A stretch of 64,000 bases of DNA from Candidatus Magasanikiibacteriota bacterium (GTDB lineage Bacteria; Patescibacteriota; Patescibacteriia; Magasanikbacterales; 2-02-FULL-50-9b), in contig CAITMK010000012.1 in assembly GCA_903893485.1 (NCBI GenBank), positions 18,708 to 82,707 of the forward strand, given 5' to 3'. The stretch's first letter is position 1. Each line of letters begins with the position of its first letter. This document shows positions 2,105-46,318 of this stretch, in pieces. The position numbers were made by a program, and so were the translations under genes. Under the pieces are notes generated by a model, which was not told the origin of the DNA, searched no databases, and worked only from the letters and a program-made list of their open reading frames with translations.

Positions 2105-3640
2105 ATGAAAAAAGTTCTTTCAAAAATAATACTTCTAAGTATTTTAATAATGCCTGCGGCTGCGTATGCAGATACAACAGCTGCTAATCCTGGAATTGGG
2201 TATAATGATTTTACCCCAGCGGATAAGCAGGCGCTTACCACAGCATTACCAATGGCTGGTTTTGCTCAAAAAATGATAAGCCCTGCACAAGATGCAGCGC
2301 AGTTACGTGCATGGCATAATCCACAGATTTCAAATGGCCGCGTTGCAGTAGAGGAAACGGTTGTAAATGTTGTTGAAAGATCAAAACTGATTGATTCGAT
2401 TAAAGAAATGGTGCAGAAAGTTGCCGATCAATATCCAGATATGGCAGCCGCGACATCATCAAGTGAGATAGTTGCGGCACACCCAGAATTTGAATCTAAG
2501 TTTGCAGAAGTGTTGGCACACACATTTACGTTAGATGAATTGCAGCTTGAACAGGGAAGCGAAAAGATTCAAATTCATGTTTACAACTTACATAATCCAA
2601 AGGAAGAGTTTGTAATTCCAGCTCAAGATCATGAGTTACACTTGGGTATGATTAGGGCTCCGACGTGGTCACTCGGCCCAGCTGGATTAGCATGGATAGA
2701 TAATACCGTAAGTACCGATTCAAAAACGGTAACACAGAAAATTAATTATTTTGATTTTAAAACTAATAAGAATCGCATTCTTTTAACGCAACAGAATAAG
2801 AGTGATTCACGGATTAGTAATATCCAGGCTCAATATCAAACAATTGATCTGGCTTTTAACGGCGCAAAAGCTACAAGCGGAACCATTTTTGATCTTGTTC
2901 ACAATAAATCGATATTGGTAAATTTACCATTAAAACCAATTCAAGGCTTGTCTACAGAATCAGAATGGAATATCAAGTTATTGCGTGGTGTTATGAGTTT
3001 TGTCTCAGGCTCACATTATATTGCAAATATTGAAAAAATCGATAAAAATAGTTCGACCGTTCGACTGTTAAATATAACGACGGGTAAAACGAAAAAAATT
3101 ACAATTCCAGGCGCAATAAGTGCAGCACGTATTTATGGTGAAAATTTAGTTGCGACCGTATCCGATGGCCCAACCAATTTACTGACAAGTGTGTGGGAAT
3201 ATTCAATGCAAAAAAATAAAGCAAGAAAAATTTCTGTAACAGATCAGGGCGCAAAAATCACAGCACTTGAAGGTGATGAAATTATATTATTGCCAGCTAC
3301 TCGCACGGATAATTTTATTTTGCAGCTCATTGTAATGAATCGTTTGACAGGCAAAAACAAGGTGATGGCATATCCAAGTTCCACATATTCAATGTATAGT
3401 TATCGCGTTGAAACCGGTATTCAAAAAGCAACGGATGATTTGGCGAAACAATATGGCGTGGAAAATGTTTCGTTGAACGGTTATACAACAGGCGACTTTA
3501 TTGGTGTGCAAAAACCATCTTCAATTAAGACAAGTGATATTCAAGGTACATACTGGGCGCAACAGCTTGCAAGTCTTGAAAAAATGAAAATAGATTTGAT
3601 GAGTAGTATTTCAGCACTAACAATTTATTCAGCAAAATAA
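2105..3640 (+). CDS. hypothetical secreted protein (511 aa) with N-terminal signal peptide
   Basis: N-terminus MKKVLSKIILLSILIMPAAAYA looks like a Sec signal. No recognisable catalytic motifs. Preceded by TGaTATACTG at 2086-2095, 9 nt before the ATG. Confidence 0.6.
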   Translation: MKKVLSKIILLSILIMPAAAYADTTAANPGIGYNDFTPADKQALTTALPMAGFAQKMISPAQDAAQLRAWHNPQISNGRVAVEETVVNVVERSKLIDSIKEMVQKVADQYPDMAAATSSSEIVAAHPEFESKFAEVLAHTFTLDELQLEQGSEKIQIHVYNLHNPKEEFVIPAQDHELHLGMIRAPTWSLGPAGLAWIDNTVSTDSKTVTQKINYFDFKTNKNRILLTQQNKSDSRISNIQAQYQTIDLAFNGAKATSGTIFDLVHNKSILVNLPLKPIQGLSTESEWNIKLLRGVMSFVSGSHYIANIEKIDKNSSTVRLLNITTGKTKKITIPGAISAARIYGENLVATVSDGPTNLLTSVWEYSMQKNKARKISVTDQGAKITALEGDEIILLPATRTDNFILQLIVMNRLTGKNKVMAYPSSTYSMYSYRVETGIQKATDDLAKQYGVENVSLNGYTTGDFIGVQKPSSIKTSDIQGTYWAQQLASLEKMKIDLMSSISALTIYSAK

Positions 3641-7788: not shown

Positions 7789-8451
7789 ATGACAGAACAA
7801 AAATATGCAGTTGTAACGGGCGGCTCTGAAGGTGTTGGATTTGCCGTGGCGCAAATGCTCGCAGGCCATGGAATGCATGTAATCCTTTTAGCGCGCGACA
7901 AAGAAAAATTAGCTGCAGCTCATACGGCGCTCGGTGGCGGCGAAAATATTTCTGTTTTTAGCGTTGATGTTTCAAACGAGGGTGCGATTGCTGAGGTAAA
8001 AAATTATATCTCCGTTGTGACTGGCCAAATCGATGTATTAGTTAACGCAGCCGGTACGTTTCGTTGGGATCCGTCCGATATTAATTTAATGACACTGAAT
8101 GCTGATAGTAAAGAATTCATACTTCACGCGTTTCACGATTTGATTATTCCAGGAAGTTTTGTAATAAATATTAGTTCGCAAGCAGCGCTATTTGCGCCGG
8201 AAGATCCACGTCGCACGGGTGAAGAAGAATATGTTGCGTCAATGCAGCGCGTCGATGCTTTGTCAGCAGAATTTGCAGCGAAACATCCCGGAGTTCATGT
8301 GCATATTTCTCATCCACCACTGATGCGCGGTAAAATTGCGGAATCACAATTTCGCGGGCGTCCTGGCTTTGAAGATATAAATTTTGATACGCTTCCGGGT
8401 CCAGAAATTGTTGCCGATGAAATTGAAAAAGTCATTTTTGGAACGGTGTGA
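7789..8451 (+). CDS. SDR family short-chain dehydrogenase/reductase
   Basis: MTEQKYAVVTGGSEGVGFAVA is the TGxxxGxG cofactor motif; NAAG region; ~220 aa. Confidence 0.7.
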   Translation: MTEQKYAVVTGGSEGVGFAVAQMLAGHGMHVILLARDKEKLAAAHTALGGGENISVFSVDVSNEGAIAEVKNYISVVTGQIDVLVNAAGTFRWDPSDINLMTLNADSKEFILHAFHDLIIPGSFVINISSQAALFAPEDPRRTGEEEYVASMQRVDALSAEFAAKHPGVHVHISHPPLMRGKIAESQFRGRPGFEDINFDTLPGPEIVADEIEKVIFGTV

Positions 8452-9188
8452 TCGGTGTTTTCGATTCTGGCTCGGGCGGACTTTCTGTTTTAGTTGCAAT
8501 TAAAAAAGTCGCGCCAGAGCTAGATATTGTTTACTTTGGCGATCTTACAAACATGCCATATGGCGCAAAATCACCGCAAGAATTATTTGATTTAACGTTA
8601 CGGGGATTTAAAATATTACGCGCCGCCGGAGCTACACAATTGGTGAGCGCGTGTAATAGTATTTCCGCGTCAGTCATTCGGCCCCTCATGCCAGATGAAG
8701 GAATTATCGAAATGGTTGGCCCGGCGGTAAGGGAATTGCTTGCGCGCCAAGTTAAACGCGTTGCAATTGTCGCGACGCCCGCGACTGTTGAATCTGGCAT
8801 CTATGATAGTGCTTGCGCCGCCGTTGGAATTCAAGCGACAATGATTGCGTGTCCGAAATTAGCTTTCGCAATCGAATACGATAATGCTGAAATAATTAGG
8901 GAAGAAGTTTTTGCGGCGTGTGAAAAAATCAAGGCAGCACGAGCAGATGCAATTTTATTAGGGTGTACACACTATCCATTTGCGCGTGGCATATTTACAG
9001 AATTTTTGCCTACAAATTTTGAAATTATTGACCCAGCATTTGCAGTTGCAGCAGAAGTTATAGCTAAATGCGGTAGTGAGGGAAGTGGCAAATTAAAAAT
9101 TATCACTTCCAAAGAAAGTGATAATTTTGGTTCGCGTATTGAAAATTTATTTGGTACCAAGCCTATGCTGCTTGGCCAAAATCCCTAG
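8448..9188 (+). CDS. murI: glutamate racemase MurI
   Basis: IGVFDSGSGGLSVL, VYFGDLTNMPYG and GCTHYP motifs. GTG start overlaps the SDR stop by 4 nt. Confidence 0.85.
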   Translation: MIGVFDSGSGGLSVLVAIKKVAPELDIVYFGDLTNMPYGAKSPQELFDLTLRGFKILRAAGATQLVSACNSISASVIRPLMPDEGIIEMVGPAVRELLARQVKRVAIVATPATVESGIYDSACAAVGIQATMIACPKLAFAIEYDNAEIIREEVFAACEKIKAARADAILLGCTHYPFARGIFTEFLPTNFEIIDPAFAVAAEVIAKCGSEGSGKLKIITSKESDNFGSRIENLFGTKPMLLGQNP

Positions 9189-9603
9189 TCGGTTCAAAGG
9201 CATTTGTGATGCGCGCCATTCGCTGGCTATAAGTCTCAGGATCATATTTGGTCGGGGTTCGTATGAGCTCAGCATTGTGTGTTTCTACAAGCGCTTTTGT
9301 AGCAGCCTCTGCTGTTACGTCTGCAGCAACTTTTTCTGCAGCAACTTCAGCGGCAGGCTTTGTTGACTGCTCCGCCTTGGTTATATATGAAGCCAGCCGA
9401 CTCAACTCTTCGGCATCATGAGGATCTTTTGCATCAAGTTTTAATTCTCCCAAAAGTTTTTGGGCTCGTGCAATTGCTTCTGGAGCGCGTGATTTTAAAT
9501 TTGGATTATTCGAGACATCATCAAGTGTTTGACGCATGCGGTCAACACGCATAAAAATGGCGGAAGGTTTGTTTGATAAAGTTTTCGGCGAATCCATAGA
9601 CAT
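9163..9603 (-). CDS. hypothetical protein with Ala/Glu-rich low-complexity C-terminal half
   Basis: ORF on the minus strand convergent with murI; the 3' ends overlap by 26 nt. Start chosen at MSMDSPK. Confidence 0.45.
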   Translation of the reverse strand: MSMDSPKTLSNKPSAIFMRVDRMRQTLDDVSNNPNLKSRAPEAIARAQKLLGELKLDAKDPHDAEELSRLASYITKAEQSTKPAAEVAAEKVAADVTAEAATKALVETHNAELIRTPTKYDPETYSQRMARITNAFEPTRDFGQAA

Positions 9604-9637
9604 ATAGATAAGTATACCATGCACCGATTATCCACAT

Positions 9638-9666
9638 TTGACATTCGGTTTCTGTTCGGTCATACT
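9638..9666 (+). promoter_or_regulatory. lexA promoter TTGACA-17-CATACT with a TTCGGT direct repeat in the spacer
   Basis: Spacer reads TTCGGTttctgTTCGGT, a possible operator. ATG of lexA is 10 nt downstream of the -10. Confidence 0.45.
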
Positions 9667-9675
9667 AAAATCACT

Positions 9676-10296
9676 ATGAAATCTACCATGCTTACCAAAA
9701 AGCAGTCAGAGCTGCTTGCCAAAATGGTCAATTTTTATAAAATGAACGATCGCGTGCCAACATATCGCGAATTGGCCGAGGAATTAGGTATTTCCTCGCC
9801 GGCAACCATTGCAGAGCACGTGTCTGGTTTGGTTAGTAAGGGTTTTTTAAAAAAAGTTGGCCAACAGATTGAGCTGACCATTAAAGCCTTTCAGCGGGGT
9901 AGTGCGGTGCGGATCCCACTTATGGGCCTCATTACCGCTGGTGAGCCAATTGAGGCCCTAGAAAACAGAGAGACAATCGTGGTACCATCTAACCTCGTCA
10001 TGGACGGAATGAATTCCTACGCGCTTAAGGTGCGCGGCGACTCCATGATCGAAGAAGGCATTTTTGACGGTGACTTTGTAGTGGTAGAACGCACGAATCG
10101 CCCACACGATGGTGATGTGGTTGTTGCGCTTTTAGACAATACCTATGCCACGCTCAAAAAGTTTTACCGCGAGAAAAATCGTATTCGTTTGCAACCGGCA
10201 AATAAACGCCTTAAGCCTATTTTTGTTAAAGATTGTATTATCCAAGGGGTTGTTCGTGGCGTAATTCGCACATTCAGAACTGCCGGAACGTTTTAA
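9676..10296 (+). CDS. lexA: LexA repressor (S24 peptidase)
   Basis: N-terminal winged-HTH (LTKKQSELLAKMVNFY...PTYRELAEELGISSPATIAEHVSGLVSKGFL). C-terminal S24 domain with GDSMIEEGIFDGDFVVVE (Ser nucleophile) and a downstream Lys. Confidence 0.85.
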   Translation: MKSTMLTKKQSELLAKMVNFYKMNDRVPTYRELAEELGISSPATIAEHVSGLVSKGFLKKVGQQIELTIKAFQRGSAVRIPLMGLITAGEPIEALENRETIVVPSNLVMDGMNSYALKVRGDSMIEEGIFDGDFVVVERTNRPHDGDVVVALLDNTYATLKKFYREKNRIRLQPANKRLKPIFVKDCIIQGVVRGVIRTFRTAGTF

Positions 10297-10301
10297 TTGT
10301 A

Positions 10302-11489
10302 ATGGCTCAAATTCAATTATCAGAAGATCAGCAGCGTGCTTTTGACCAATTATTTGATTGGTCTATTAAGCCTGTCGGTGAATCGATTACGCTTGGAGGT
10401 TTTGCTGGCACGGGCAAAACAACACTCATCAGTATTTTACGCAAAGAAATTCGTCGTAAAAATGCGGGAACACGGGTTGCATTTGTTGCATTTACGGGCA
10501 AAGCGAGTCAAGTTTTGCGCGGCACTTTGGAGGCATCAAAATCGTTATACCCAGAAGATTCATGCGGCACAATTCATTCGCTGTTATACAAAGCGCATAC
10601 CGATAAAGACGGAAAATTAATGTATTGGAAGCGCGCCAAAACCGTGGAAGCCGAATTAATTATTGTGGACGAAGCCAGCATGGTCACCAGCGAAATCTGG
10701 GATGATTTATTGGCATGTGATATTCCAATTATTGCACTCGGGGACCACGGACAGCTGCCGCCGATCTCAGGAAAATTTAATTTAATGGAAAAGCCGCATA
10801 TCGTTTTAGAAAAAATCCATCGTCAGGCAGAAAATAATCCGATTATTCAGATTGCGCATGAAGCGCGACTTACTGGCACGGTGCGCGCCGGCACATATTC
10901 CAAAAGTGTGCGTAAATTTTCGCACGAAGTAAATGACCCAAGCGAAATTAATAATGTCATCGATCATTTATTCGAAAATTATCACGACGACATGATGATT
11001 TTGTGCGGCCGCAATAAAACGCGCACTCAAATTAACGCGGCAATCCGTACCAAAATGGGCCGCGAAGATGCAACTCCAGAAGTTGGCGACAAAGTTGTAT
11101 GTTTAAAAAATAATTACGATTTAGTGCATGCGCCAATTTACAACGGCATGACCGGTTACATTACGGAACTGACGCCACACAAAGAACATTGGTACGAAGC
11201 GAGCATTGATTTCCCAGAAGAGCGACGAACGTTTAATGGACTGATTATTAAGGATCAATTCGGTGCGCCAACACTGATCGATGAGATCAAAGGCGTTAAA
11301 TTCAAGGACTTGGGTGACAAATTTGATTTTGGTTATGCACTCACCGTTCACAAAGCGCAGGGCAGTCAGGCTAAAACCGTTGTGCTGTTTGAAGAACGTT
11401 TTCAAAAATCCGATGACGAACAATGGCGACGCTGGTTGTACACGGCCATCACGCGCGCACGCGAGAATCTTTACATTATTGGAGCTTAA
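10302..11489 (+). CDS. RecD/Dda-like SF1B ATP-dependent DNA helicase
   Basis: Walker A GFAGTGKTT, motif II IIVDEASMV, and C-terminal VHKAQGSQ...VVL motif. Starts 5 nt after the lexA stop. Confidence 0.75.
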   Translation: MAQIQLSEDQQRAFDQLFDWSIKPVGESITLGGFAGTGKTTLISILRKEIRRKNAGTRVAFVAFTGKASQVLRGTLEASKSLYPEDSCGTIHSLLYKAHTDKDGKLMYWKRAKTVEAELIIVDEASMVTSEIWDDLLACDIPIIALGDHGQLPPISGKFNLMEKPHIVLEKIHRQAENNPIIQIAHEARLTGTVRAGTYSKSVRKFSHEVNDPSEINNVIDHLFENYHDDMMILCGRNKTRTQINAAIRTKMGREDATPEVGDKVVCLKNNYDLVHAPIYNGMTGYITELTPHKEHWYEASIDFPEERRTFNGLIIKDQFGAPTLIDEIKGVKFKDLGDKFDFGYALTVHKAQGSQAKTVVLFEERFQKSDDEQWRRWLYTAITRARENLYIIGA

Positions 11490-11522
11490 TTGATTTGACA
11501 GTCCATTTCAGGGGGGGGTAAA
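11484..11522 (+). promoter_or_regulatory. promoter TTGACA-18-TAAAAT containing a G8 homopolymer in the spacer
   Basis: aTTGACAgtccatttcaGGGGGGGGTAAAATg lies upstream of the 11564 gene. Confidence 0.4.
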
Positions 11523-11563
11523 ATGCTCATATTAGTAATGTTGGAACATTTAATCATAATAAT

Positions 11564-11875
11564 ATGGCATTTGACGGAAAAAGAGCAGAGGATATTGCTG
11601 CGGTTGCAGAAGAGGCAAAAGTTGAAGGAGAAGGTATTTGGACAAATTCAGATGGTTCTGAAACTCCAAAGCAAAAGATTCTCAATTTGAAGCAGCATAT
11701 CATTTCATATGAAAAACAATATGCAGTGAATATGGATGCAGCAATTGCGGACCCAACAGATTCGGAAGCTCTAGAATTGGCGGAGTTGGCGACAAAGAAA
11801 CTTGCGAAACTTCATGAAGAATTAACGGCGTTAGAGGCAGCGCATGCAAATCGTGTTGAAGAGGCTTTAAAGTAG
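11564..11875 (+). CDS. hypothetical small acidic coiled-coil protein (103 aa)
   Basis: ORF with a downstream terminator; no recognisable motifs. Confidence 0.5.
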   Translation: MAFDGKRAEDIAAVAEEAKVEGEGIWTNSDGSETPKQKILNLKQHIISYEKQYAVNMDAAIADPTDSEALELAELATKKLAKLHEELTALEAAHANRVEEALK

Positions 11876-11890
11876 GTTTTAAAGCTTTAA

Positions 11891-11926
11891 AAAAGATACT
11901 CGTCACCGCGGCGAGTATCTTTTTGT
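11891..11926 (+). terminator. Rho-independent terminator
   Basis: aaaagatactcg-tcaccgcggc-gagtatcttttt. Confidence 0.75.
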
Positions 11927-11965
11927 TATATTGACCAAACCGTAAAAATAGCATAAGCTATTCCC

Positions 11966-13393
11966 ATGGAACACATCTCCCCATCAATTTTTTATCAGTA
12001 TTTTACGTGCCCGCACTGGCCGTGGTTTGAGCGTTTTGGCGACGAAACAAAACGGGGTGAATTTGGCGAGCTTCAAAAAAAGTTACTCGAACAGGGCGTG
12101 GCGAATGAAGAAAAATTCATGGCGGAGTTTACCAATGAAAAACAGGTGGTCACGATTGTGGCGGCAAATTGGCAGCAGGGATTGGAACAGACCAAAAAGG
12201 CTATGGCCGCTGGTGCAGACTTTATTTATCATGCGTATCTCCAGGATCGCACGTATCAGGGCATACCGGATTTGCTCATGCGTGTGGAAGGCAAAAGCAA
12301 ATTTGGCGCGTGGCAGTACGAACCTGTTGATATTAAATCTGGCTATGAATTGAAAGATGAATATAAATATCAGCTCGTGTTGTACGCGCTTTTGCTGGAA
12401 ATTGCGCTGGGTGTTCGCCCAAAGCAAGGGCATATCATCACCGCTTCACACGAATTTATTTCGTTCCCCGTTGATAATTTCATGGAGAAATTTTTTGATG
12501 TTTTAGAAAAAATCGAAGCAATTATTGGTGGCGAAAAGCCACCGCTGCAGCTCACCAAATCCTGCATGAACAGCCCATGGTATGCGTGTTGTGTTGAACA
12601 GGCTGAAGCGACCGACGACATCGCACTTTTGTATAAAGTCGATAAACGCGCCCTTGGAGCGCTGCACGAAGCGGGAATTAATACCGTCGAAGACGCCCGC
12701 CACATTGATCCAGAAATATTAGGCGACTCAATTCCATTTTTAAAAAAGGGTGGATTAGAGCGCATGAAAATGCAAGCAGAATCATTGAAAACAAAAAAAA
12801 TAATTTTGCGTAAACCTGTAAAAATGCCAACGGCCGCAAATATTGTGCATTTCGATATCGAAGGCGATCCACTTTTAGGACTTGAATATTTATTTGGATT
12901 TTTAATAGAAGGCAAAAATGGCGCGCCTGATGAATATAAGGCATTTGTTGCAGAAAAACCCGAAGACGAACGCAAAATGTGGCGTGAATTTTTAGATTGG
13001 CTCGCGGGCTTGCCAACAGATATGGTGATTTTTCATTATGCAACCTACGAAAAGTCGCGCCTGACCATGCTTGCACGCCGCTACGGTCGCGACATGTCGG
13101 AAATAGATCATGTAATCTTGGCCGCGTTCGCCGGCAAACTTTTTGATCTCAATGACATCGTAAAAGATAATTTTGTTTTCCCCTTATATTTTTACGGCCT
13201 CAAACAAATCGGAAAATTTCTTGGATTTCATTGGGATAGCGCCAAAGCTGGTGGCGCACAAAGTATTTTTTGGTATGAAGAATGGCTCAAAACAAATGAT
13301 CGTGAAATTCTAAATACGATTATTCAATACAACAAAGACGATGTGCGTGCGACAAAGTTTTTAAAGGATTGGATTGTGAATTATAAAGAATAA
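11966..13393 (+). CDS. RecB-family (Cas4-like PD-(D/E)XK) nuclease with a C-terminal RNase H-like 3'-5' exonuclease domain (TM0106-type)
   Basis: N-terminus YQYFTCPHWPW plus CMNSPWYACC give a Cas4-like 4-Cys cluster. PD-(D/E)XK elements GIPDLL / EPVDIKSG / YQLVLY. Later IVHFDIEGDPL...YLFG resembles a DnaQ-like exonuclease I motif. Confidence 0.55.
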   Translation: MEHISPSIFYQYFTCPHWPWFERFGDETKRGEFGELQKKLLEQGVANEEKFMAEFTNEKQVVTIVAANWQQGLEQTKKAMAAGADFIYHAYLQDRTYQGIPDLLMRVEGKSKFGAWQYEPVDIKSGYELKDEYKYQLVLYALLLEIALGVRPKQGHIITASHEFISFPVDNFMEKFFDVLEKIEAIIGGEKPPLQLTKSCMNSPWYACCVEQAEATDDIALLYKVDKRALGALHEAGINTVEDARHIDPEILGDSIPFLKKGGLERMKMQAESLKTKKIILRKPVKMPTAANIVHFDIEGDPLLGLEYLFGFLIEGKNGAPDEYKAFVAEKPEDERKMWREFLDWLAGLPTDMVIFHYATYEKSRLTMLARRYGRDMSEIDHVILAAFAGKLFDLNDIVKDNFVFPLYFYGLKQIGKFLGFHWDSAKAGGAQSIFWYEEWLKTNDREILNTIIQYNKDDVRATKFLKDWIVNYKE

Positions 13394-34970: not shown

Positions 34971-35477
34971 ATGAAGGAGCTCTTTGACAAAAATAATCCA
35001 AGCACACTTGTGAGCGAAAATTTTTCGTGGGATGAATTCGAAGCCCGGCATGTTGATTCTGTTCGGCCGCCTGTAAAACTTTCAAAACACGAGCTTGCCG
35101 ATCTTGAAGCGCAATCCGAGAGCTTAGAAACTGAAGAAGCAAAATTAGTTGCTCAAATTAAGGATCCACATTTTGTGCAAAACATGGTGGAACGTGAAAT
35201 TGAATCAGCCACCAAAGAAATTGCAGTCGTGGTCGCTGAAATGGAAAAAATAAAAAAGCAGCAATCAATTTTAGGACGTTTATTAAAACGTGATTTGCCA
35301 CCAGAATATGAACGCCTCGAGGAACATTTTTTTCATTTGCAAAGTAAACTTATTTTGCTAGATGGCAAACGATTACACCCCGATGTGGTGCATGTGGGAA
35401 CCATGCGCGCACTTAAATCGGTACGCGAAAAAATCGCACGTATTGCGCTGCTCAAAAAAGAAATCGAACACTTTTAG
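34971..35477 (+). CDS. hypothetical coiled-coil protein (168 aa)
   Basis: TGtTATACTG box 10 nt upstream of the ATG, so likely leaderless. Confidence 0.5.
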   Translation: MKELFDKNNPSTLVSENFSWDEFEARHVDSVRPPVKLSKHELADLEAQSESLETEEAKLVAQIKDPHFVQNMVEREIESATKEIAVVVAEMEKIKKQQSILGRLLKRDLPPEYERLEEHFFHLQSKLILLDGKRLHPDVVHVGTMRALKSVREKIARIALLKKEIEHF

Positions 35478-36430
35478 ATAAGTCCCAATGCGCCGCGAAC
35501 CTCGGACATTGTTTTTTGTGCGCGAGCACTTGCAGCGGCGCGGCCCATTTCCAAAACTTCGGTAATGCGCGCGTCGGTAATTTCTTCGCGGCGAGCGCGA
35601 AAATCTGCAAAATAATTTGCAATCAAATCAGCGAGCGTATCTTTCAGATCTACATTTTTTAACGTGCCGGCTGCAAATTCTGCAGACAATTTTTGGTGCG
35701 TACCATTGGCATCAAAAAGTTGTGCGAGTCCTAACAAATTTTGTACGCCAACTTCGTCGGTCACGGCTTTGCGCATTTTATCGTGAATCGAATCTGAGTC
35801 GTCGGTCAAATAAATACATGATTTGTCGCCATGTGATTTTGACATTTTTTTTGTTGGTTCAGCGAGCGACATAACGCGTGGCGTTTGGGTGAGCAGCGCT
35901 TGTGGTTCGGGGAAGAGTACACTAAATTTATTGTTAAACTTTTTTGCAATCACGCGTGCAAGTTCCACATGCTGCACCTGATCTTCGCCAACAGGAATTT
36001 GATGTGGTTTGTATAATAAAATATCCGCGGCCATGAGCACTGGATATGTGTACAAGCCGGCGTTAATATTTTCTGCGTGGCGCGCTGCCTTATCTTTAAA
36101 TTGCGTCATTTTATCGAGCTCGGCCAGGGGAGTCAGCGTTAAGAAAATCCAACAAAGTTCGGAATGTTCTGGCACATGCGACTGCACAAATAAATTTGAT
36201 TTTGTAGGATCAATGCCAAGCGCCAAAAGATCGCGTACCAAATTGCGAACCATTTTTTGTTTTTGTGCCGGGTCAAAATCAACCGTAAGCGAATGCAAAT
36301 CTGGAATAAAATAAAAACGTTCAAGGCCTGGATCGGCTTGCATGTCCACCCAATTTTTAACCGCGCCCAAATAATTACCAATATGCATGCTGCCGGTTGG
36401 CTGGATTCCAGAAATGATGACGTTTTTCAT
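35474..36430 (-). CDS. trpS: tryptophan--tRNA ligase
   Basis: GIQPTGSMHIGNY HIGH motif and KMSKS motif. The ORF-track 620-aa reading is an upstream extension antisense to cassette E. Confidence 0.85.
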   Translation of the reverse strand: MKNVIISGIQPTGSMHIGNYLGAVKNWVDMQADPGLERFYFIPDLHSLTVDFDPAQKQKMVRNLVRDLLALGIDPTKSNLFVQSHVPEHSELCWIFLTLTPLAELDKMTQFKDKAARHAENINAGLYTYPVLMAADILLYKPHQIPVGEDQVQHVELARVIAKKFNNKFSVLFPEPQALLTQTPRVMSLAEPTKKMSKSHGDKSCIYLTDDSDSIHDKMRKAVTDEVGVQNLLGLAQLFDANGTHQKLSAEFAAGTLKNVDLKDTLADLIANYFADFRARREEITDARITEVLEMGRAAASARAQKTMSEVRGALGLI

Positions 36431-36461
36431 AGTAGGAGGATTATAGCGGATGCGGCGGATC

Positions 36462-36490
36462 TTGACAAAACCGCTAAAACATGGTATGCT
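36462..36490 (+). promoter_or_regulatory. strong sigma70-like promoter gatcTTGACAAAA-17-TGgTATGCT for cassette E
   Basis: Consensus -35, 17-nt spacer, extended -10, followed by a ~95-nt leader with a hairpin. Confidence 0.55.
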
Positions 36491-36583
36491 GCTCGGTCTA
36501 GTTGAAAAGGGCTTTCCTAGCGGAAAGATTAGGCTTGTGGCAGATAAGTATTTGCTGCAAAACCCTCGTGATCGGAGGACAAG

Positions 36584-37291
36584 ATGAATGAGAAAAACTC
36601 GGAAAAGCGGTACGTTGTCGCGGCTTTGTTGCGGCAGGTTTTGGGCCTCGGGCCGAATGACCTGACGGCAAAAATGCTGCTGGCGACGGCCATGACGCAG
36701 ACGCAAGCCGCAGTGTTCGCCGAGGCGGTGCATCCGAATTTCCCGCGTTGGGCTGGCCGCTCGACCCGCGATTTCGCGGACTCGTGTGGTCCGGACGCGC
36801 ATTTCAAGGGCGAGACGGACCTGATGAAGGTCCTGGTCTCGGAGGACCTGAATAAGGCCATGCTGATCGACATCGGCTGGCGGCTGGGCACGGTGATCGT
36901 TCCGATGCCGGGCAAGCGCGAGCGGGAGAGCCTGCACGACCTGTTCAAGCACTTCATGGTCACGGACGAAGAGCTCGATCGGCCGAACATCGCTGCGATG
37001 GCGGCGGCTGGTGCTCAGGTTCCCCGCGATCGTGCGACTCCGCCGGCGCCGACCAAGGCGAGCCAAGTGGCACGCGCCAATCAGGCGGTCGTGCGCAAGG
37101 ACATTCTCGCGGGCAAGCACATGCCGTCGGGCGATGCTGGCTTTGGCGGTGCGTCCAACGAGCCGCGCGGCGATCATCGCGGTCGGCGTGCGCGTCTCGA
37201 AGAAGAGCAGCGCATGCGTCAGCGCGGCAAGCCGGCTGAAGGCACGGGCAAGCACTCGGCGAAGCGCAAGCAGGGCGGCGGTCGCGGTTAG
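36584..37291 (+). CDS. hypothetical protein (235 aa) with basic disordered C-terminal tail, GC-rich cassette E
   Basis: GGAGGA Shine-Dalgarno 5 nt upstream. ~66% GC. C-terminal ~70 aa are Arg/Lys/Gly-rich. Confidence 0.5.
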   Translation: MNEKNSEKRYVVAALLRQVLGLGPNDLTAKMLLATAMTQTQAAVFAEAVHPNFPRWAGRSTRDFADSCGPDAHFKGETDLMKVLVSEDLNKAMLIDIGWRLGTVIVPMPGKRERESLHDLFKHFMVTDEELDRPNIAAMAAAGAQVPRDRATPPAPTKASQVARANQAVVRKDILAGKHMPSGDAGFGGASNEPRGDHRGRRARLEEEQRMRQRGKPAEGTGKHSAKRKQGGGRG

Positions 37292-37312
37292 CGCAAACGT
37301 GCGCGGCCAATC

Positions 37313-37378
37313 GGCGTACAACATAGAGACTCGCACAGAAATTTCGTGCTTGAGACTCTGGTTGTACGCTGTTTTTTA
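37313..37378 (+). terminator. long-hairpin intrinsic terminator after cassette E
   Basis: gtacaacatagagactc...gagactctggttgtac stem followed by gctgtttttt. Confidence 0.6.
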
Positions 37379-37439
37379 TTTGACTGAAAAATGTAATTAC
37401 ACTAGGATTGATGAGGTTTCGCAACTTTTGGAGGATGTG

Positions 37440-38249
37440 ATGAAACAAGCTCAGATTAGGGATGATTTGCAACAAGCGTATTTGGAAACAATTGTGCTGG
37501 CACAACTGCTCGATGAAGGGTTTATTGGGCCGGCGAACTTGCTTCTTCGAGTTTTTGGTGCGTGCAAGGTGCCGCACAAAAACGCGTGGAGTGGTACGTT
37601 CGGAAATTCGCAGCTCTTTCAATTTGGTACAAATGGCCGTGCCCTGCGTTTGACCTTTACCACTACAATAACTGAAGCCAGTCTGATTCTGGACTGGACT
37701 TCAGATTATCAGGCGACAGAGCAGGACGTGGACCTGTGGTCACAGCGCGTGGAGCTCGGTTACGTCAGGTCTCGTGGTAAGTGGTTTTTTGAGACGAACC
37801 TCTCTGCCGACGGCTTTGGGGAATGGTTCGGTCGTCATGGTTCGCGCCTTCCAATTCCGGATTGGCATCACGACGATCCCATGCCCTGGCTTGCAATCAA
37901 CGCGGTCACACGTGGTTTCTTGCCCAAGAGGCCGGAAAGATTTGCACGCGCAATGGTCATGATTTTTTTGGAGGGAAATCAGACTGCGGATCGGTATCAA
38001 GCTGATCCGCTTACGGTGAGCGAGGCTACTGTTCTGAAGTCCATCGCGCATGCAGTCATGAATGGTAATCGGTGGATGGTTGTTCGGACGCGCGCCGGCA
38101 GACGTCTGGATTCGCAAGACGCACGGGATGCCCTTGATGTAATTATGGGGATCAAACCGCCTTTGGAGTGCTCCAGAGATTTGCTCGAATTCGTCAAGAT
38201 GATCTGTGGCGCTGCTGGCGACGCAAGCTTCGGCGGCCGCATTGTTTGA
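37440..38249 (+). CDS. hypothetical protein (270 aa), cassette F, tandem with E
   Basis: TTGACT-17-TAGGAT promoter at ~37380-37410. GGAGGA Shine-Dalgarno 5 nt before the ATG at 37440. ~53% GC. No recognisable motifs. Confidence 0.5.
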   Translation: MKQAQIRDDLQQAYLETIVLAQLLDEGFIGPANLLLRVFGACKVPHKNAWSGTFGNSQLFQFGTNGRALRLTFTTTITEASLILDWTSDYQATEQDVDLWSQRVELGYVRSRGKWFFETNLSADGFGEWFGRHGSRLPIPDWHHDDPMPWLAINAVTRGFLPKRPERFARAMVMIFLEGNQTADRYQADPLTVSEATVLKSIAHAVMNGNRWMVVRTRAGRRLDSQDARDALDVIMGIKPPLECSRDLLEFVKMICGAAGDASFGGRIV

Positions 38250-38336: not shown

Positions 38337-40439
38337 TTAGACCTCAATGATTACGGGCAACACCATTGGGCGTCGCTTGGTTTGATTGAACAAGAATTGT
38401 CCAACATCATTGCGGATGCGTGTTTTGATGTATTCATCAAACGCAGGGGATTTGTGATCCGATTCGTCCATGATTTTTTGAACGAGCGCGCGTGTTTTGT
38501 CCAAAATTTCCTGGTTATCTTTGATAAGAATAAACCCACGAGAAATAATGTCCGGTGCGCCGATGAGCGCGCCCGATGATTCTTCGATGGTTGCAATAAC
38601 CACGAGCATACCGTCTTGCGACATTTCCATGCGATCGCGCAGAATTACTTCTGACACATCGCCAACGCCAAGGCCATCAACCATAACATATTCTGCAGGA
38701 TGACGTTCTTCGGTAAGGCGGCCGCCGCTTACATCGAATTGCACGACTTGGCCGTTATCGGCAATGAAAATATTTTCTTTTTCAACACCAACCGCTGCAG
38801 CAAGACGGCCGTGAGCCGCAAGCATAAAGCGGTTGCCATGAATTGGCATGAAATGTTTTGGCTTGGTAAGGCGCAACATTAATTTGAGATCTTCTTGTTT
38901 TGCGTGACCGCCGGCGTGCACATCCATGTGCACCGAATGCACCACGTTTGCACCATGGCGAACCAACGTGTCTTTGAGGCGTTGAACACTGCGTTCATTA
39001 CCTGGAACAACTGATGAAGAGAAAATCACGGTGTCATTGTCTTCCAATTTAAGGAAACGATGTTCGCCGGTTGCAATGCGCATGAGCGCCGCTTTTTCTT
39101 CGCCTTGTGCGCCAGTACACAAAATAAGTAAGTTTTCTGGGCGATATTTGTTGTAATCGTTTTCATCGATGATGGTGCCTGGTTTGAACTGCAAGTAGCC
39201 AAGTTCATGAGCAAGATCAACGTTTTTTTGCATTGAACGACCCTGAATTAAAACCTTGCGGCCATACTTTTCGGCAAGCGCCAAAATGATTTGCACGCGA
39301 GTTAAAAGGGAAGAGAAAGTACCAACAATAATGCGGCTTTCTGCGTTGCCGATTACGCGATCAAGTTCGTTATACACAACTTGTTCTGAAATTTGGTGAC
39401 CTGGAATGTCTGCGGCGGTTGAATCTGACAAAAGTGCCAAAACACCTTTTGAGCCATACATTGCAATGCGGCCAAGATCTGCTGGCTCTTCGTTCACTGG
39501 GGTGAAATCGAATTTGAAGTCACCGGTAATAAGAACTGGGCCAAATGGTGTGTGAATTGCAACACCAAACGCATCGGAAATGGTGTGGTTAATGTGGAAC
39601 GGTTCAAAGATAAAGTTTTTACCCAAATGAAAACGTTCGTCGGCGTGCTGCACAATTACCATGTTTAATTTTGGCAAATGTGGATATTCTTCGTGGCGTG
39701 CGCGAACGATACCGGCGGTTAATGGCGCGGTATAAATTGGCGGATTGCCAATTTTTGGGAGCACGTGTGAAATTGCACCAACGTGGTCCAAATGGCCGTG
39801 AGTGATAATGACACCGCGAATATTTTTTTCGCGACCCTTAAAGGTTGCAACATTTGGAATAATGTAGTCGATGCCTGGCATGCCTTCTTCGGGGAACATA
39901 AGGCCGACGTCAACGATAATAATATCGTCGCCGCATTCCAAAACGGTACAGTTGCGGCCAATTTCTTCCAAGCCGCCAAGTGCGTAAATTTTAAGTTTCA
40001 AATCTGAGTCTGCGGTTGGGGCAACGAGTGGTTCAAAATAAACCGCTTCACGGTCGCCACGTTGAACATCATAACCCGCTGGAATTGGGGTGTTGAAATC
40101 TGGAGCGTTGCGTGGGCGCATAACGCCAGCTGCTGCATGAAATGCTGAACGTTTTTGGATAATTGGTAAGCCTCCAACGCGTGCGGTTGGACCGCTTTGC
40201 TGCTGATTGCCATAAGCTGGGCGTGAAGCAGCACCGCCACGCATAGGTGGGCGGTTTGAACGCTGAAACGGTGGGCGTCCACCAATCATTGGAGGGCGAC
40301 CATCGGGGCGCGCTGGTGTGGCAGGCATGCCTGAATTATTGAAGCGGCGAGGGCCACCCATAGGTGGACGTCCCTGGTTTGGGCCACGACGAAGTGGCGG
40401 CGGTGCCATGTTTGGCGACGCTGATACTGGATCTGTCAT
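38337..40439 (-). CDS. rnj: ribonuclease J (beta-CASP metallo-beta-lactamase RNase) with ~180-aa Arg/Gly/Pro-rich N-terminal extension
   Basis: HGHLDHVGA zinc motif, beta-CASP and C-terminal domains. N-terminus is rich in RPPMGGPRR / GGRPPF repeats. Confidence 0.8.
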   Translation of the reverse strand: MTDPVSASPNMAPPPLRRGPNQGRPPMGGPRRFNNSGMPATPARPDGRPPMIGGRPPFQRSNRPPMRGGAASRPAYGNQQQSGPTARVGGLPIIQKRSAFHAAAGVMRPRNAPDFNTPIPAGYDVQRGDREAVYFEPLVAPTADSDLKLKIYALGGLEEIGRNCTVLECGDDIIIVDVGLMFPEEGMPGIDYIIPNVATFKGREKNIRGVIITHGHLDHVGAISHVLPKIGNPPIYTAPLTAGIVRARHEEYPHLPKLNMVIVQHADERFHLGKNFIFEPFHINHTISDAFGVAIHTPFGPVLITGDFKFDFTPVNEEPADLGRIAMYGSKGVLALLSDSTAADIPGHQISEQVVYNELDRVIGNAESRIIVGTFSSLLTRVQIILALAEKYGRKVLIQGRSMQKNVDLAHELGYLQFKPGTIIDENDYNKYRPENLLILCTGAQGEEKAALMRIATGEHRFLKLEDNDTVIFSSSVVPGNERSVQRLKDTLVRHGANVVHSVHMDVHAGGHAKQEDLKLMLRLTKPKHFMPIHGNRFMLAAHGRLAAAVGVEKENIFIADNGQVVQFDVSGGRLTEERHPAEYVMVDGLGVGDVSEVILRDRMEMSQDGMLVVIATIEESSGALIGAPDIISRGFILIKDNQEILDKTRALVQKIMDESDHKSPAFDEYIKTRIRNDVGQFLFNQTKRRPMVLPVIIEV

Positions 40440-40816
40440 AGGAGTGTTAAATTGATTTCTTTCTCTTTTCGTGGACACGCGTCGCATTCTCCTGCGAGAA
40501 TGCGCGCTCGGCCCCGGTTCGCCAGTTTTGCTTCGCAAAACACCATGCTGGCTCACCTGCGGATGGTCCACTAAAACAGAAAGAAATCGATTTTAGTGAG
40601 TATGAGTGATTAAATTTTTGAAATAGTGCTGAACTGGTCAAGTAAAAAAGGTGTGTCGCAAGGTTTATAAAAATCTATTGTGAGGGACCATCCGCAGCCT
40701 GAGCGGGCCGGAGTTTTGGCACGTAGGGCCAAAACGAGCGAGGGCGAGGCTGAGTGCAAATTCCCGCCGGGGAATTTGCCACGTGTCCTGAACATTAGAT
40801 TTTTATAAACCGGCTT
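40440..40816 (-). promoter_or_regulatory. long structured leader/spacer between tRNA-Leu and rnj, with interleaved inverted repeats
   Basis: IR1 ggtttataaaaatct / agatttttataaacc and IR2 ctgcggatggtcc / ggaccatccgcag are arranged 1a-2a-1b-2b. Several perfect local hairpins are also present. Confidence 0.4.
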
Positions 40817-42984: not shown

Positions 42985-43725
42985 ATGCAAGAAACTGTTT
43001 TAGTACAAATTCCCGGGCAGCCATGGTGGAAACGCTGGTGGGGAATTCTTATCATTTTGATTTTAGGCACCGGCACGATCTTTACTTTGTGGTTCGGGGC
43101 ACTTGTTTATTCAAACGTAAAGATGATTCGCTCCGGCGCACTCAAACCGCTGAGTAGTTATAATTCAGATTTTACCGGCAGCGGCGCGGCAGCTGGTACG
43201 GCAAGCAAAGGCGCACAATTAATTCGCCCAGAAAATGCAACCATGGGCAAGGGCGATCATACCATTGTTGAATTTGGTGATTTTGAATGTCCATTTACTG
43301 CCAAAGAATTTCCAGTTATCCGTCCGCTCATGGAAAAGGTGTTGGGAGTGAAATTTGTATTTCGAAATTTTCCGCTCACCACGATTCATACACACGCATA
43401 TAATGTAGCGCTTGCAGGCACCTGTGCCAAAGCGCAAGGGAAATTTTGGGAATATCATGATCAGGTTTTTTTGAATCAAACTGATTTGACTGATACGGCG
43501 CTCGCACATTATGCGCAAACCGCGGGTTTGGATACTGATAAATTTGCAACGTGTTTTAGTGACAAAACTTATAAAGACGAAGTTGCACGTGACGCGCAAG
43601 ATGGCTATGCGCTTGGGGTTCGTGGCACGCCAACATTTTTCATTGATGGTTTCAAAGTTGAAGGCGCAATTCCAACCGATGCGTGGACCGTAATTTTGGG
43701 CAAACTTGGAATCTCGGTTAATTAA
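42985..43725 (+). CDS. DsbA-like thioredoxin-fold protein with N-terminal membrane anchor; active-site motif reads CPFT
   Basis: TM segment ILIILILGTGTIFTLWFGALV. FGDFECPFTAKEF sits at the position of the DsbA CxxC motif. TGaTATACTG box upstream. Confidence 0.5.
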   Translation: MQETVLVQIPGQPWWKRWWGILIILILGTGTIFTLWFGALVYSNVKMIRSGALKPLSSYNSDFTGSGAAAGTASKGAQLIRPENATMGKGDHTIVEFGDFECPFTAKEFPVIRPLMEKVLGVKFVFRNFPLTTIHTHAYNVALAGTCAKAQGKFWEYHDQVFLNQTDLTDTALAHYAQTAGLDTDKFATCFSDKTYKDEVARDAQDGYALGVRGTPTFFIDGFKVEGAIPTDAWTVILGKLGISVN

Positions 43726-43726
43726 T

Positions 43727-46318
43727 ATGAAACAGCTGCTGCAAAAACTTGGGATCATGGTAAGTTTTGCAGCGGCAGTTTTTTTTCCGGTTGCACGGCC
43801 GGTGTTTGCTGCAACATCTAATTGTTGTTTATATCAACCAAATACTGCGGCACCACAATGGTTAAATGATTTGGGTGCAAGTGCAAATGTGGTGACGAAA
43901 CTTCCAGCATCAGGAAAGTGTGACGCACCATCCGAGGTCGTATCAATTTCAGCGTTGAAAGAATTTTATACGGGGGACGTTTTAACCAATGACGCGGCAA
44001 CTTGCTCAAGTGCCAGCGGTAACGAAGTCAAATTGTCTCAGGCAAGTAATGCGCCAATCCAATGTTGCATGCTGCAGAGTAGTGATTCAAAAACAGTGGC
44101 ATGCGTTCCAAAAAAAGCAGGGGATGGTGCGACAAGTTGTCTTACTGCCACGGTTTCGCAAATTAAATCTGGCATGTCAATTGTTCAGACCACAAATACT
44201 TGTGACTCTCAAGTGCCATGTCAAAATTTAACACTTGCGCAAACGGCGCAAACCTTGAATAGTGGTGCACAAAATCCTGCGCCTGCTGCGGGTGCTGCAG
44301 CAGATGGGGCAAATGCGCCAACACCTCCCTGGACCAAAACGGATTGTTTGTTAGAAAAAGATGCGGGCGGCGCAACACATAACATGTGGTTGCCACCAGC
44401 AAATGATGCAACTGCGACAACAGGAAATTATTGTTACGTAAAACCAATCCCGGTTAATTTGGAAATTCCATTTGGCGGGCAGATTTCAACAGCAACGGGG
44501 CTTCCACAATATATTAACGCGGCATACAAATATGCAATCGGTATTGCGGTCATGGCAGCGGTGCTCATGTTTATGTACGGGGGGTTTTTGTGGATGTTTT
44601 CTGGTGTTTCAAGTCAGATAAGTCAGGCTAAGACGGTGATGCTAACTTCTATTACTGGATTAACATTGGTTTTTGGTGCATATATTATTTTAAATACCAT
44701 TGATCCGTCGCTCATTAATTTGCAAGCGCCGCCGATTCATGCAATTAGGCCAGATGTTTTAGTGACCGCAGATAAATTAGCGACCTGTGATCCAAGTGCA
44801 GAAAATAGCTGCGGGCCTTCTAAGTATTGCGAGCCAACCATGACGGGTGTGGAAAATGCTTGTAACCGACAGATGATGGCTTTTGGTGGCGCGGTGTTCG
44901 GAAGTGCGGCGATTGCTGCTGCAGCTCCATTTGCGCTCGCTGCAGGCGCAACAGCACTTGCAAATGCTGGTGAAAAAATAGCTGCAGATGGGATGGGTTT
45001 GATAATAAAAAATGCCGCCAAAAGCGCCGCGGTTAATTATTTTAAGGGGCAAGCCGTTGAAACAGTGGGAAGTAAAATTACCGATGCCATTGGGCCGGCT
45101 GTTTTTGTAACACTTGGGTTGGCGTACGTAAATTATGAAATGGCACCAAAAGATGTGGAAGGATATTGCGTTGATTTAAATCACGATAAAATCGTGGGAC
45201 AAATTTGCGCGGGCGATGCTGATTGTCAATCAAATAAATGTCTGCAAACCTCAAAAAGTTCATGCTCAACCGTAAAAAGAGGTATTTGTGTGAACGGCGA
45301 TTTACGTGATCCGTGTCCGATTGAAGTGACTGAACAAACTAAAAAGTATGCTTGCCTAAATGGCGTCACTTGCGTCGATAACGAACATGGATCAAGTAGA
45401 TTCGGAATTGGATTTTGTTCCGACGGATCTCATTTAGGAATGCCATGCAACGATAAAGTTGCGTGTAAATCATTTGCTGATGGATTGAATTTGATGTGTG
45501 CTGGCGGATATTGTCGACAAAAAGAGTATTATGAGAAAGACGGAACTCTTACTGATGTAGCCGGAGGTAATCCGCGTTGTATTATTCCGTCAGATTGTAC
45601 CGGTGATGATTATACTAAGCTTAATGCGTCTCAGCATTTGGGGCAGGCACTGGCCAGCGGTAGAACAACTTACGCCGGTTGTTTAAAAAAAGGTGATCCT
45701 GAATCTGGGCTGCCAGCACGTTTTTTGGTGCCAGTTATGAATTATGAAGTACGTGCTGCATATCTTGCAGAACTCAGTTCTTCAGGGATCTGCACAACCG
45801 CGGCACCCTTTTTTGTTAATGCGGCTGGGAAAAAAACAGCAAACGTGTGCTACGTTAATATTTATCAAAGCAAAAAAACAGCAAGTCCTCCAGCCAAGGC
45901 TGAAGCGGAAAATAAAACAGTTTTAGACGCAATAAGTGCAAAATATGGAGCAAATAGTATGGGCTCTGATTTTGCAGCGGGTATTGTTTTTAATAAAGTT
46001 GGTTGTGGAATTGATAAAGATCAAATTAACCACGCGGTTATTAATGGTACACCTATTTTTGATACATCAGGTGATTGTGTCATTGATGCTGGTTCGGTTC
46101 TCTCGCAAAATTTGGCATTAGTAAATGGCGTGGGAGTCGTCAGGGGATATTGTTCGGATCAAGTCGGCGGAAAAAATGGTGAAAGTTATGTTTGGACGCA
46201 GACAGAACTTGGACAATACCTTATGTATGTACACGCTGATGATGCAAATTCTGGATGGGTAAAGACGCCAGATCTGACCAATTTAAGCAACACATACGCA
46301 GGCACCGTGACGCAGTAA
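43727..46318 (+). CDS. large secreted cysteine-rich protein (~865 aa) with a central pair of TM helices (VirB2/TrbC-pilin-like hairpin?)
   Basis: Signal peptide, then >50 Cys in both extracytoplasmic halves. The central hydrophobic hairpin is YAIGIAVMAAVLMFMYGGFLWMFSG...TGLTLVFGAYIILN. Confidence 0.5.
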   Translation: MKQLLQKLGIMVSFAAAVFFPVARPVFAATSNCCLYQPNTAAPQWLNDLGASANVVTKLPASGKCDAPSEVVSISALKEFYTGDVLTNDAATCSSASGNEVKLSQASNAPIQCCMLQSSDSKTVACVPKKAGDGATSCLTATVSQIKSGMSIVQTTNTCDSQVPCQNLTLAQTAQTLNSGAQNPAPAAGAAADGANAPTPPWTKTDCLLEKDAGGATHNMWLPPANDATATTGNYCYVKPIPVNLEIPFGGQISTATGLPQYINAAYKYAIGIAVMAAVLMFMYGGFLWMFSGVSSQISQAKTVMLTSITGLTLVFGAYIILNTIDPSLINLQAPPIHAIRPDVLVTADKLATCDPSAENSCGPSKYCEPTMTGVENACNRQMMAFGGAVFGSAAIAAAAPFALAAGATALANAGEKIAADGMGLIIKNAAKSAAVNYFKGQAVETVGSKITDAIGPAVFVTLGLAYVNYEMAPKDVEGYCVDLNHDKIVGQICAGDADCQSNKCLQTSKSSCSTVKRGICVNGDLRDPCPIEVTEQTKKYACLNGVTCVDNEHGSSRFGIGFCSDGSHLGMPCNDKVACKSFADGLNLMCAGGYCRQKEYYEKDGTLTDVAGGNPRCIIPSDCTGDDYTKLNASQHLGQALASGRTTYAGCLKKGDPESGLPARFLVPVMNYEVRAAYLAELSSSGICTTAAPFFVNAAGKKTANVCYVNIYQSKKTASPPAKAEAENKTVLDAISAKYGANSMGSDFAAGIVFNKVGCGIDKDQINHAVINGTPIFDTSGDCVIDAGSVLSQNLALVNGVGVVRGYCSDQVGGKNGESYVWTQTELGQYLMYVHADDANSGWVKTPDLTNLSNTYAGTVTQ

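Follow-up and report, generated by a model that had tools for sequence, protein, structure and literature searches.

Predicted reach of LexA across a lexA–helicase–nuclease gene row in a Magasanikiibacteriota bacterium

A 64,000-nucleotide (nt) stretch of contig CAITMK010000012.1 from a Candidatus Magasanikiibacteriota bacterium (hereafter the window) carries lexA followed on the same strand by genes for a helicase, a small acidic protein and a nuclease, and the question raised by this row is how far along it the control by LexA extends. A first-pass annotation had placed all four genes under LexA. We consider it probable that the locus is an autoregulated lexA operon with a single helicase gene, and that the nuclease and the open reading frame (ORF) of the small protein are separate units outside LexA control. 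All regulatory claims made here are drawn from sequence and conservation within these 64 kilobases (kb); recA and the remaining regulon lie outside the window. The comparison set comprised 80 lexA loci from species-representative genomes, mostly of Patescibacteria (individual loci and contigs carry L numbers below). The closest homologues of the LexA, helicase and nuclease proteins come from Candidatus Magasanikbacteria (60–86% identity), and remoter ones from Uhrbacteria, Falkowbacteria and other Patescibacteria. The features of the lexA promoter and operon are as follows.

9628–9636, forward strand: perfect match to the DnaA-box consensus TTATCCACA, abutting the lexA −35 hexamer; the sole copy in 64 kb
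9638–9666, forward strand: lexA promoter, TTGACA-17-CATACT, found by promoter scan (10 of 12 consensus positions)
9643–9660, forward strand: predicted LexA operator, ATTCGGT-N4-GTTCGGT (matrix score 27.0 bits)
9676–10296, forward strand: lexA, 206 amino acids (aa) (TIGR00498, 157 bits against a cutoff of 111)
10302–11489, forward strand: Dda/RecD-like SF1B helicase, 395 aa (PHROG 325, Dda-like helicase, 322 bits over residues 1–394)

The N-terminal DNA-binding domain of the LexA protein matches PF01726 (39.7 bits) and the C-terminal S24 peptidase domain PF00717 (106.8 bits), and the protein keeps both the cleavage site, A88–G89 (ITAGEP), and the catalytic dyad of S123 (GDSM) and K161 (TLKK). 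Public gene calls give a longer LexA of 225 aa that begins at 9619, which would place the −35 hexamer, the operator and the −10 hexamer inside the coding sequence. Since homologues are 206–210 aa long, and given the position of the promoter, the evidence supports 9676 rather than 9619 as the true lexA start. The promoter hexamers are TTGACA (−35, 9638–9643) and CATACT (−10, 9661–9666), and the same layout recurs in relatives. The ATG follows the −10 hexamer by 9 nt, and the predicted mRNA is therefore nearly leaderless.

The lexA promoter spacer contains a direct repeat rather than a palindrome, as the first-pass annotation had proposed. This element, TTCGGTTTCTGTTCGGT (9644–9660), has the form TTCGGT-N5-TTCGGT with an 11-base-pair (bp) period, and fills the 17-bp spacer between the −35 and −10 hexamers exactly. 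The window contains no second exact copy of it. A matrix built from 36 lexA-upstream sites placed the second-best site of the 64 kb at 12.7 bits, a score also reached by shuffled sequence, and neither the matrix nor a search allowing up to two mismatches found anything elsewhere in the window that exceeds the shuffled range. In about 45 of 76 loci the same direct repeat precedes lexA on the strand of the gene, with clade variants that include GTTCTATTTTTGTTCTA and TTTGGGTAnnnTTTGGTA. Because the repeat precedes lexA in about 45 other genomes, we take TTCGGT-N5-TTCGGT to be the LexA operator, a non-palindromic one. Across 761 kb of related loci, strong LexA sites are nearly confined to lexA promoters. 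A small regulon is reportedly what Sanchez-Osuna, Barbe and Erill described for the Patescibacteria SOS network in Environ Microbiol in 2017.

An operator of this type has already been published and is not new. Direct-repeat LexA motifs of the form GTTC-N7-GTTC are established in Alphaproteobacteria (PMC8565304), and the consensus of the lexA-upstream sites, GTTCGGTTTTTGTTCGGT, contains GTTC-N7-GTTC exactly. The resemblance to the boxes of Alphaproteobacteria and Acidobacterium thus extends to the direct repeat and its 11-bp period; the conserved unit here is longer, however, (G)TTCGGT, and in the window the first of the two units reads ATTC. The Patescibacteria SOS study is cited as a case of direct-repeat LexA binding in PMC7739468 (ref. 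52). As far as that 2017 study is represented in the papers that cite it (PMC7739468 and PMC8565304), it shares with the present locus the phylum, an autoregulated lexA and a non-palindromic direct repeat overlapping the promoter; neither a lexA–helicase operon nor a DnaA box by the operator is known to be described there.

Two further arrangements were seen at lexA promoters in the comparison set. In promoters of the Uhrbacteria type there is an apparent second LexA-like repeat on the opposite strand, immediately past the −10 hexamer (…tataatACGAACAtaagCCGAACa…; L006, L007, L009–L012, L019, L021, L027, L033, L034 and L037), which would make an inverted pair of direct-repeat boxes. In L010, L014, L016, L018, L028, L031 and L044 the LexA box lies 170–500 nt upstream of lexA with a small gene in between; in some operons lexA is thus preceded by another gene. 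The intervening gene of L010 (5485–5995) encodes a 124-aa 23S rRNA intervening-sequence protein (PF05635).

The operator has a neighbour. In 31 of the 45 loci with a strong LexA box, an exact TTATCCACA lies no more than 60 nt away from it, whereas random windows in the same loci gave 0.29 on average and never more than 2; with one mismatch allowed, the count is 40 of 47. All 80 loci together hold 62 exact copies, about two-thirds of which adjoin a LexA box. The usual position of the DnaA box is 6–8 bp upstream of the lexA −35 hexamer, while across the lexA promoters of L006–L061 its flanks, its spacing and even its orientation vary between lineages. This variation in flanks and orientation speaks for selection on the DnaA box itself and against common descent of the entire segment. 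Further copies of TTATCCACA in L018 and L031 lie partly within ORFs. A replication origin at this locus was considered and rejected: the window has a single DnaA box, and its cumulative GC skew climbs evenly past 9.6 kb without an inflection there.

There is a precedent in Escherichia coli, where DnaA and LexA co-repress the uvrB, recN and dinJ promoters (PMC6015884). In both cases an SOS promoter combines a DnaA box with a LexA box. The pair described here differs in that it belongs to lexA itself, in a phylum far removed from E. coli, and is conserved in many lineages. In the literature searched we found no statement of a pairing of DnaA box and LexA box at lexA promoters; an earlier mention is possible, and we regard the pairing as possibly a new observation.

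We now turn to the reach of the operon. The helicase gene starts 5 nt past the lexA stop codon, and a promoter and terminator scan found no promoter-like or terminator-like site in the gap. The order of the two genes is kept in six related contigs (L001–L003 and L081–L083), with gaps of 16–25 nt. On the strength of the short gap, the lack of an internal promoter or terminator and the conserved gene order, lexA and the helicase gene are predicted to form one operon under LexA, which upholds this part of the first-pass annotation.

The relatives of the helicase in the Protein Data Bank are 9kwf_B, RecD2 (3e1s) and Dda (3upu), and with T4 Dda and Deinococcus RecD2 it shares the helicase core and the motor motifs GTGKT, DEASM, GDxxQLPP and VHKAQGS; in its translation Walker A, Walker B and motifs III, V and VI are intact. 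The match to the RecD2 model TIGR01448 reaches 139 bits against a cutoff of 500 and covers only model positions 314–688; unlike RecD2, the window helicase is without the N-terminal region of about 310 residues. Unlike the phage-borne T4 Dda, it is encoded on the chromosome, and it is widespread in Patescibacteria. Its family membership suggests 5′–3′ translocation on single-stranded DNA. Members of this 395-aa family occur throughout Patescibacteria at 50–65% identity, and no LexA box was found upstream of the orthologues outside the clade (L084–L098). LexA control of the helicase is thus restricted to one narrow clade.

Other lineages carry a different gene in this place. In 23 loci, which belong to Uhrbacteria, Falkowbacteria, Parcubacteria and Kerfeldbacteria (among them L006, L010, L016, L018 and L058), lexA is followed on its own strand by a Y-family polymerase gene at a distance of 130–1160 nt; in L058 the polymerase (IMS) gene has a LexA box of its own. 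No Y-family polymerase gene was found in the 64-kb window, nor within 6 kb of lexA in L001–L005. The locus resembles those with dinB- or imp-like lexA neighbours in that a damage-response gene follows lexA directly and in the same orientation, and differs from them in that a Dda-like helicase fills the slot in the clade of the window. In L005, lexA is followed directly by the nuclease gene, without the helicase. In L024 and L032, a DnaA box stands immediately before the start of the Y-family polymerase gene.

Beyond the helicase, the row contains a second set of signals and genes.

11495–11524, forward strand: promoter of the orphan ORF, TTGACA-18-TAAAAT (11 of 12 consensus positions), the strongest match in the region
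11564–11875, forward strand: acidic orphan ORF, 103 aa, isoelectric point 4.74, no homologue
11890–11924, forward strand: intrinsic terminator, 15-bp stem between A and T runs (−23.3 kcal/mol, z = −4.67)
11931–11959, forward strand: candidate nuclease promoter, TTGACC-17-TAAGCT, read by eye; the ATG comes 6 nt later
11966–13393, forward strand: TM0106/COG2251 nuclease gene (TIGR03491, 329 bits against a cutoff of 97.45)

The 103-aa ORF is a species-specific orphan. No homologue was found among 1.84 billion representative proteins, in Pfam, NCBIfam, PHROGs or PADLOC, or at the loci of relatives. Its codon score of 0.61 is host-like (in-frame mean 0.54, off-frame mean −0.73). A single-sequence AlphaFold2 (AF2) model has a predicted local distance difference test score (pLDDT) of 76 with helices at residues 35–62 and 67–102, and the protein is predicted to be a two-helix hairpin behind a disordered acidic N terminus. 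A small RNA in place of the ORF was considered and rejected; the Rfam match to OrzO-P is below threshold (26 bits against 60).

The first-pass annotation was also right to give this ORF its own promoter with a G8 tract, which occupies 11511–11518 in the promoter spacer. The length of the tract differs within one population: of seven assemblies, five have G8 and two G7, while the bases on either side are identical. The difference separates L099 and L102 from L100, L101, L103 and L104, and the spacer is 18 bp long with G8 and 17 bp with G7. It could reflect slipped-strand (phase) variation or homopolymer assembly noise. Several contigs end at the G tract or at the terminator.

The terminator is predicted to insulate the nuclease gene from upstream transcription. 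The interval that holds it varies between relatives: between helicase and nuclease it is empty in L001, L003 and L081–L083 and contains the orphan ORF in the window, while in L002 it holds a SET-domain-like gene on the reverse strand (7830–8290; …NHSCQPNC…). Because of this gene in L002, the helicase–nuclease gap seems to be a hotspot for the insertion of unrelated small genes.

The nuclease that follows is of the TM0106 type and Cas4-like, as had been annotated, though two details of that description need amending. Its N-terminal half is a Cas4/Dna2-like PD-(D/E)XK domain and its C-terminal half matches PF13482 (108 bits), an RNase H-like domain resembling DEDD-type 3′–5′ exonucleases; this order of domains agrees with the COG2251 architecture described in PMC3985635; the same paper presents COG2251 proteins as frequent carriers of AAA domains, with fusions to AAA/helicase domains in some of the nucleases. 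In a 109-sequence family alignment, D102, D122, K124, Q136 and Y140 are conserved in the first domain and D297, E299 and D459 in the second. Of the four cysteines of the first-pass annotation, only three are conserved family-wide (C15 invariant, C200 and C209/C210 in at least 90% of the 109 sequences); the fourth, the second of the CC pair, is lineage-specific, and one homologue is without the C-terminal cysteines. The AF2 model (pLDDT 95) gave Foldseek matches to Cas4, the Dna2 nuclease domain, the exonuclease domain of a B-family polymerase and RNase H. The C-terminal exonuclease-like domain is nearer to that of the B-family polymerases than to DnaQ, to which it had been likened.

With Cas4, AddB and Dna2 the nuclease shares the fold, the D...D-x-K and QxxxY motifs and the placement of the N-terminal cysteine and the C-terminal cysteines, which is that of Cas4. 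It differs from them in its three family-wide cysteines, the PF13482 fusion and the lack of a CRISPR context: its match to the Cas4 equivalog TIGR00372 reaches 44.6 bits, below the cutoff of 65, and no CRISPR repeat array was found in the 64-kb window. The family is widespread in Patescibacteria. A TTGAC stands at the same place before the nuclease gene in L001, L002, L003 and L005, and a matrix scan found no LexA box at the nuclease gene of the window or in front of those of its relatives. The nuclease gene looks leaderless.

The features of the lexA promoter and operon suggest how the locus might work. A LexA dimer bound to the direct-repeat operator in the −35/−10 spacer would exclude RNA polymerase. 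Upon DNA damage, RecA-stimulated self-cleavage of LexA at A88–G89 by S123 and K161, as expected from the chemistry of the family, would lead to derepression and to a nearly leaderless bicistronic lexA–helicase mRNA. The 5′–3′ Dda/RecD-like SF1B helicase would thereby be damage-inducible in this clade, in the slot that the polymerase holds in sister lineages, and read-through from the lexA operon would stop at the terminator. The DnaA box by the −35 hexamer, to judge from its conservation, probably adds a signal of replication status to lexA transcription. A broader proposal, which we put forward tentatively, is that the composite promoter of DnaA box and LexA operator integrates replication initiation with damage at lexA across Patescibacteria, and that in the Magasanikbacteria clade this dual control moved from a translesion polymerase to a Dda-like helicase, so that the response would turn away from lesion bypass and towards the processing of forks or ends, perhaps jointly with the adjacent TM0106 nuclease.

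The alternative closest to the original description is that all four genes are a single LexA-controlled module for damage-induced end resection that replaces RecBCD, AddAB or RecJ. The four genes do lie on one strand within 3.8 kb, and the helicase adjoins the nuclease in seven related contigs, with gaps of 42–63 nt in L001, L003 and L081–L083; the position of the nuclease directly after lexA in L005, the COG2251–AAA/helicase fusions (PMC3985635) and the resemblance of the nuclease domain to Dna2, itself a nuclease fused to an SF1B helicase, point the same way. We nevertheless judge such a module improbable. A strong independent promoter and a strong terminator stand between helicase and nuclease, the nuclease has a candidate promoter of its own, and the nuclease genes of relatives have their own TTGAC −35 and no LexA box. 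Outside the clade the helicase is unlinked to the nuclease and lacks the box, and in Uhrbacteria the nuclease gene lies 2.5–4 kb upstream of lexA, on the opposite strand and again without a box. The small ORF, for its part, is an orphan whose place is taken by an unrelated SET-domain gene in L002. Unlike in AddAB, AdnAB and RecBCD, helicase and nuclease are here separate transcription units, linked in one clade only. The claim that LexA controls the whole cluster is thus not borne out. A weaker version, compatible with an operon that ends after the helicase, is that helicase and TM0106 nuclease cooperate as a split Dna2- or AddB-like processor of ends or flaps, however they are transcribed. 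Their adjacency in one clade, a TM0106-like gene that L096 carries at a distance of 3.6 kb from its helicase orthologue, the COG2251 fusions mentioned in the literature (PMC3985635), the Foldseek match to the Dna2 nuclease domain and the wide distribution of both genes in Patescibacteria all speak for it; yet the two are unlinked in L095, L097, L098 and L084–L094, where the orthologues lie in unrelated contexts, and L005 retains lexA and nuclease without the helicase. We regard such cooperation as possible, if doubtful.

That the cluster is a damage-induced mobile or anti-phage defence island, defence being the other role suggested by the first-pass annotation, is very improbable. PADLOC returns partial matches of the helicase to PDC-M16A and type IV RecD and of the nuclease to Cas4 models, and orphan genes have been inserted between the two; these matches are generic, however, and cover part of much longer profiles. 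Moreover, the base composition of the cluster is that of the rest of the window, its flanks are housekeeping genes (murI, a PfkB-family kinase and an aldolase) with murI synteny kept in relatives, no CRISPR array was found in the window, the Cas4 model scores below its cutoff, and both genes are vertically conserved across Patescibacteria. The preferred reading, an operon of lexA and helicase with the nuclease and orphan ORF outside it, has points against it as well. The first half-site of the operator in the window is ATTC, not GTTC (ATTC-N7-GTTC). A LexA box was sought upstream of uvrA, a gene inside the window at which the first-pass annotation had proposed to look for the repeat, and was absent by both mismatch and matrix search. 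The candidate nuclease promoter has a weak −10 hexamer (TAAGCT) below the scan threshold, some read-through past the terminator into the nuclease gene may be possible, and the DnaA boxes of the five closest relatives deviate from the consensus at one position and point the other way.

The four genes and the repeat lie at the coordinates first assigned to them, with family matches in agreement, and the rest of the window is housekeeping in character: rpoC, murI, uvrA, pheT, trpS, RNase J, transketolase, aldolase and glycosyltransferases, together with RNase P RNA and three tRNAs. Base composition is even along the 64 kb. One gene diverges from lexA and is given for context.

9166–9603, reverse strand: divergent orphan gene, 146 aa, outside the lexA operon

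This gene has no match in Pfam, NCBIfam, PADLOC or PHROG and no homologue in the fetched loci; its codon score is 0.36. It has an extended −10, TGgTATACT (9619–9611), with the start codon 7 nt beyond, and looks leaderless. There is overlap on both sides, of its −35 region with the DnaA box and of its 3′ end with the end of murI. Elsewhere in the window, N-terminal extensions without a family match are found on RNase J (about 190 residues; 38337–40571, reverse strand) and on tryptophanyl-tRNA synthetase (about 300 residues; 35474–37336, reverse strand). An 870-aa protein encoded directly upstream of uvrA (43706–46318, forward strand) has only a weak match to PF18895 (type IV secretion pilin-like, 26.5 bits), and the large ORFs at 2105–3640, 51821–54193 and 37011–38249 have no family match at all.

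Taken as a whole, the locus is ordinary: an autoregulated lexA operon with a clade-specific helicase as cargo. The practical value of describing it is modest, namely a corrected lexA start and clean boundaries between transcription units, and it carries the caution that adjacency of genes is not co-regulation. Repair repertoires are very small in candidate-phyla bacteria, which cannot be cultured on their own; promoter anatomy is therefore among the few routes to knowledge of their damage response. Here that anatomy indicates that the regulatory reach of LexA ends after one gene, and that neighbouring lineages have different cargo in the lexA operon, a helicase in this clade and a Y-family polymerase in sister groups. 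The pairing of DnaA box and LexA box would be the more useful lead, if it is functional and not yet reported.

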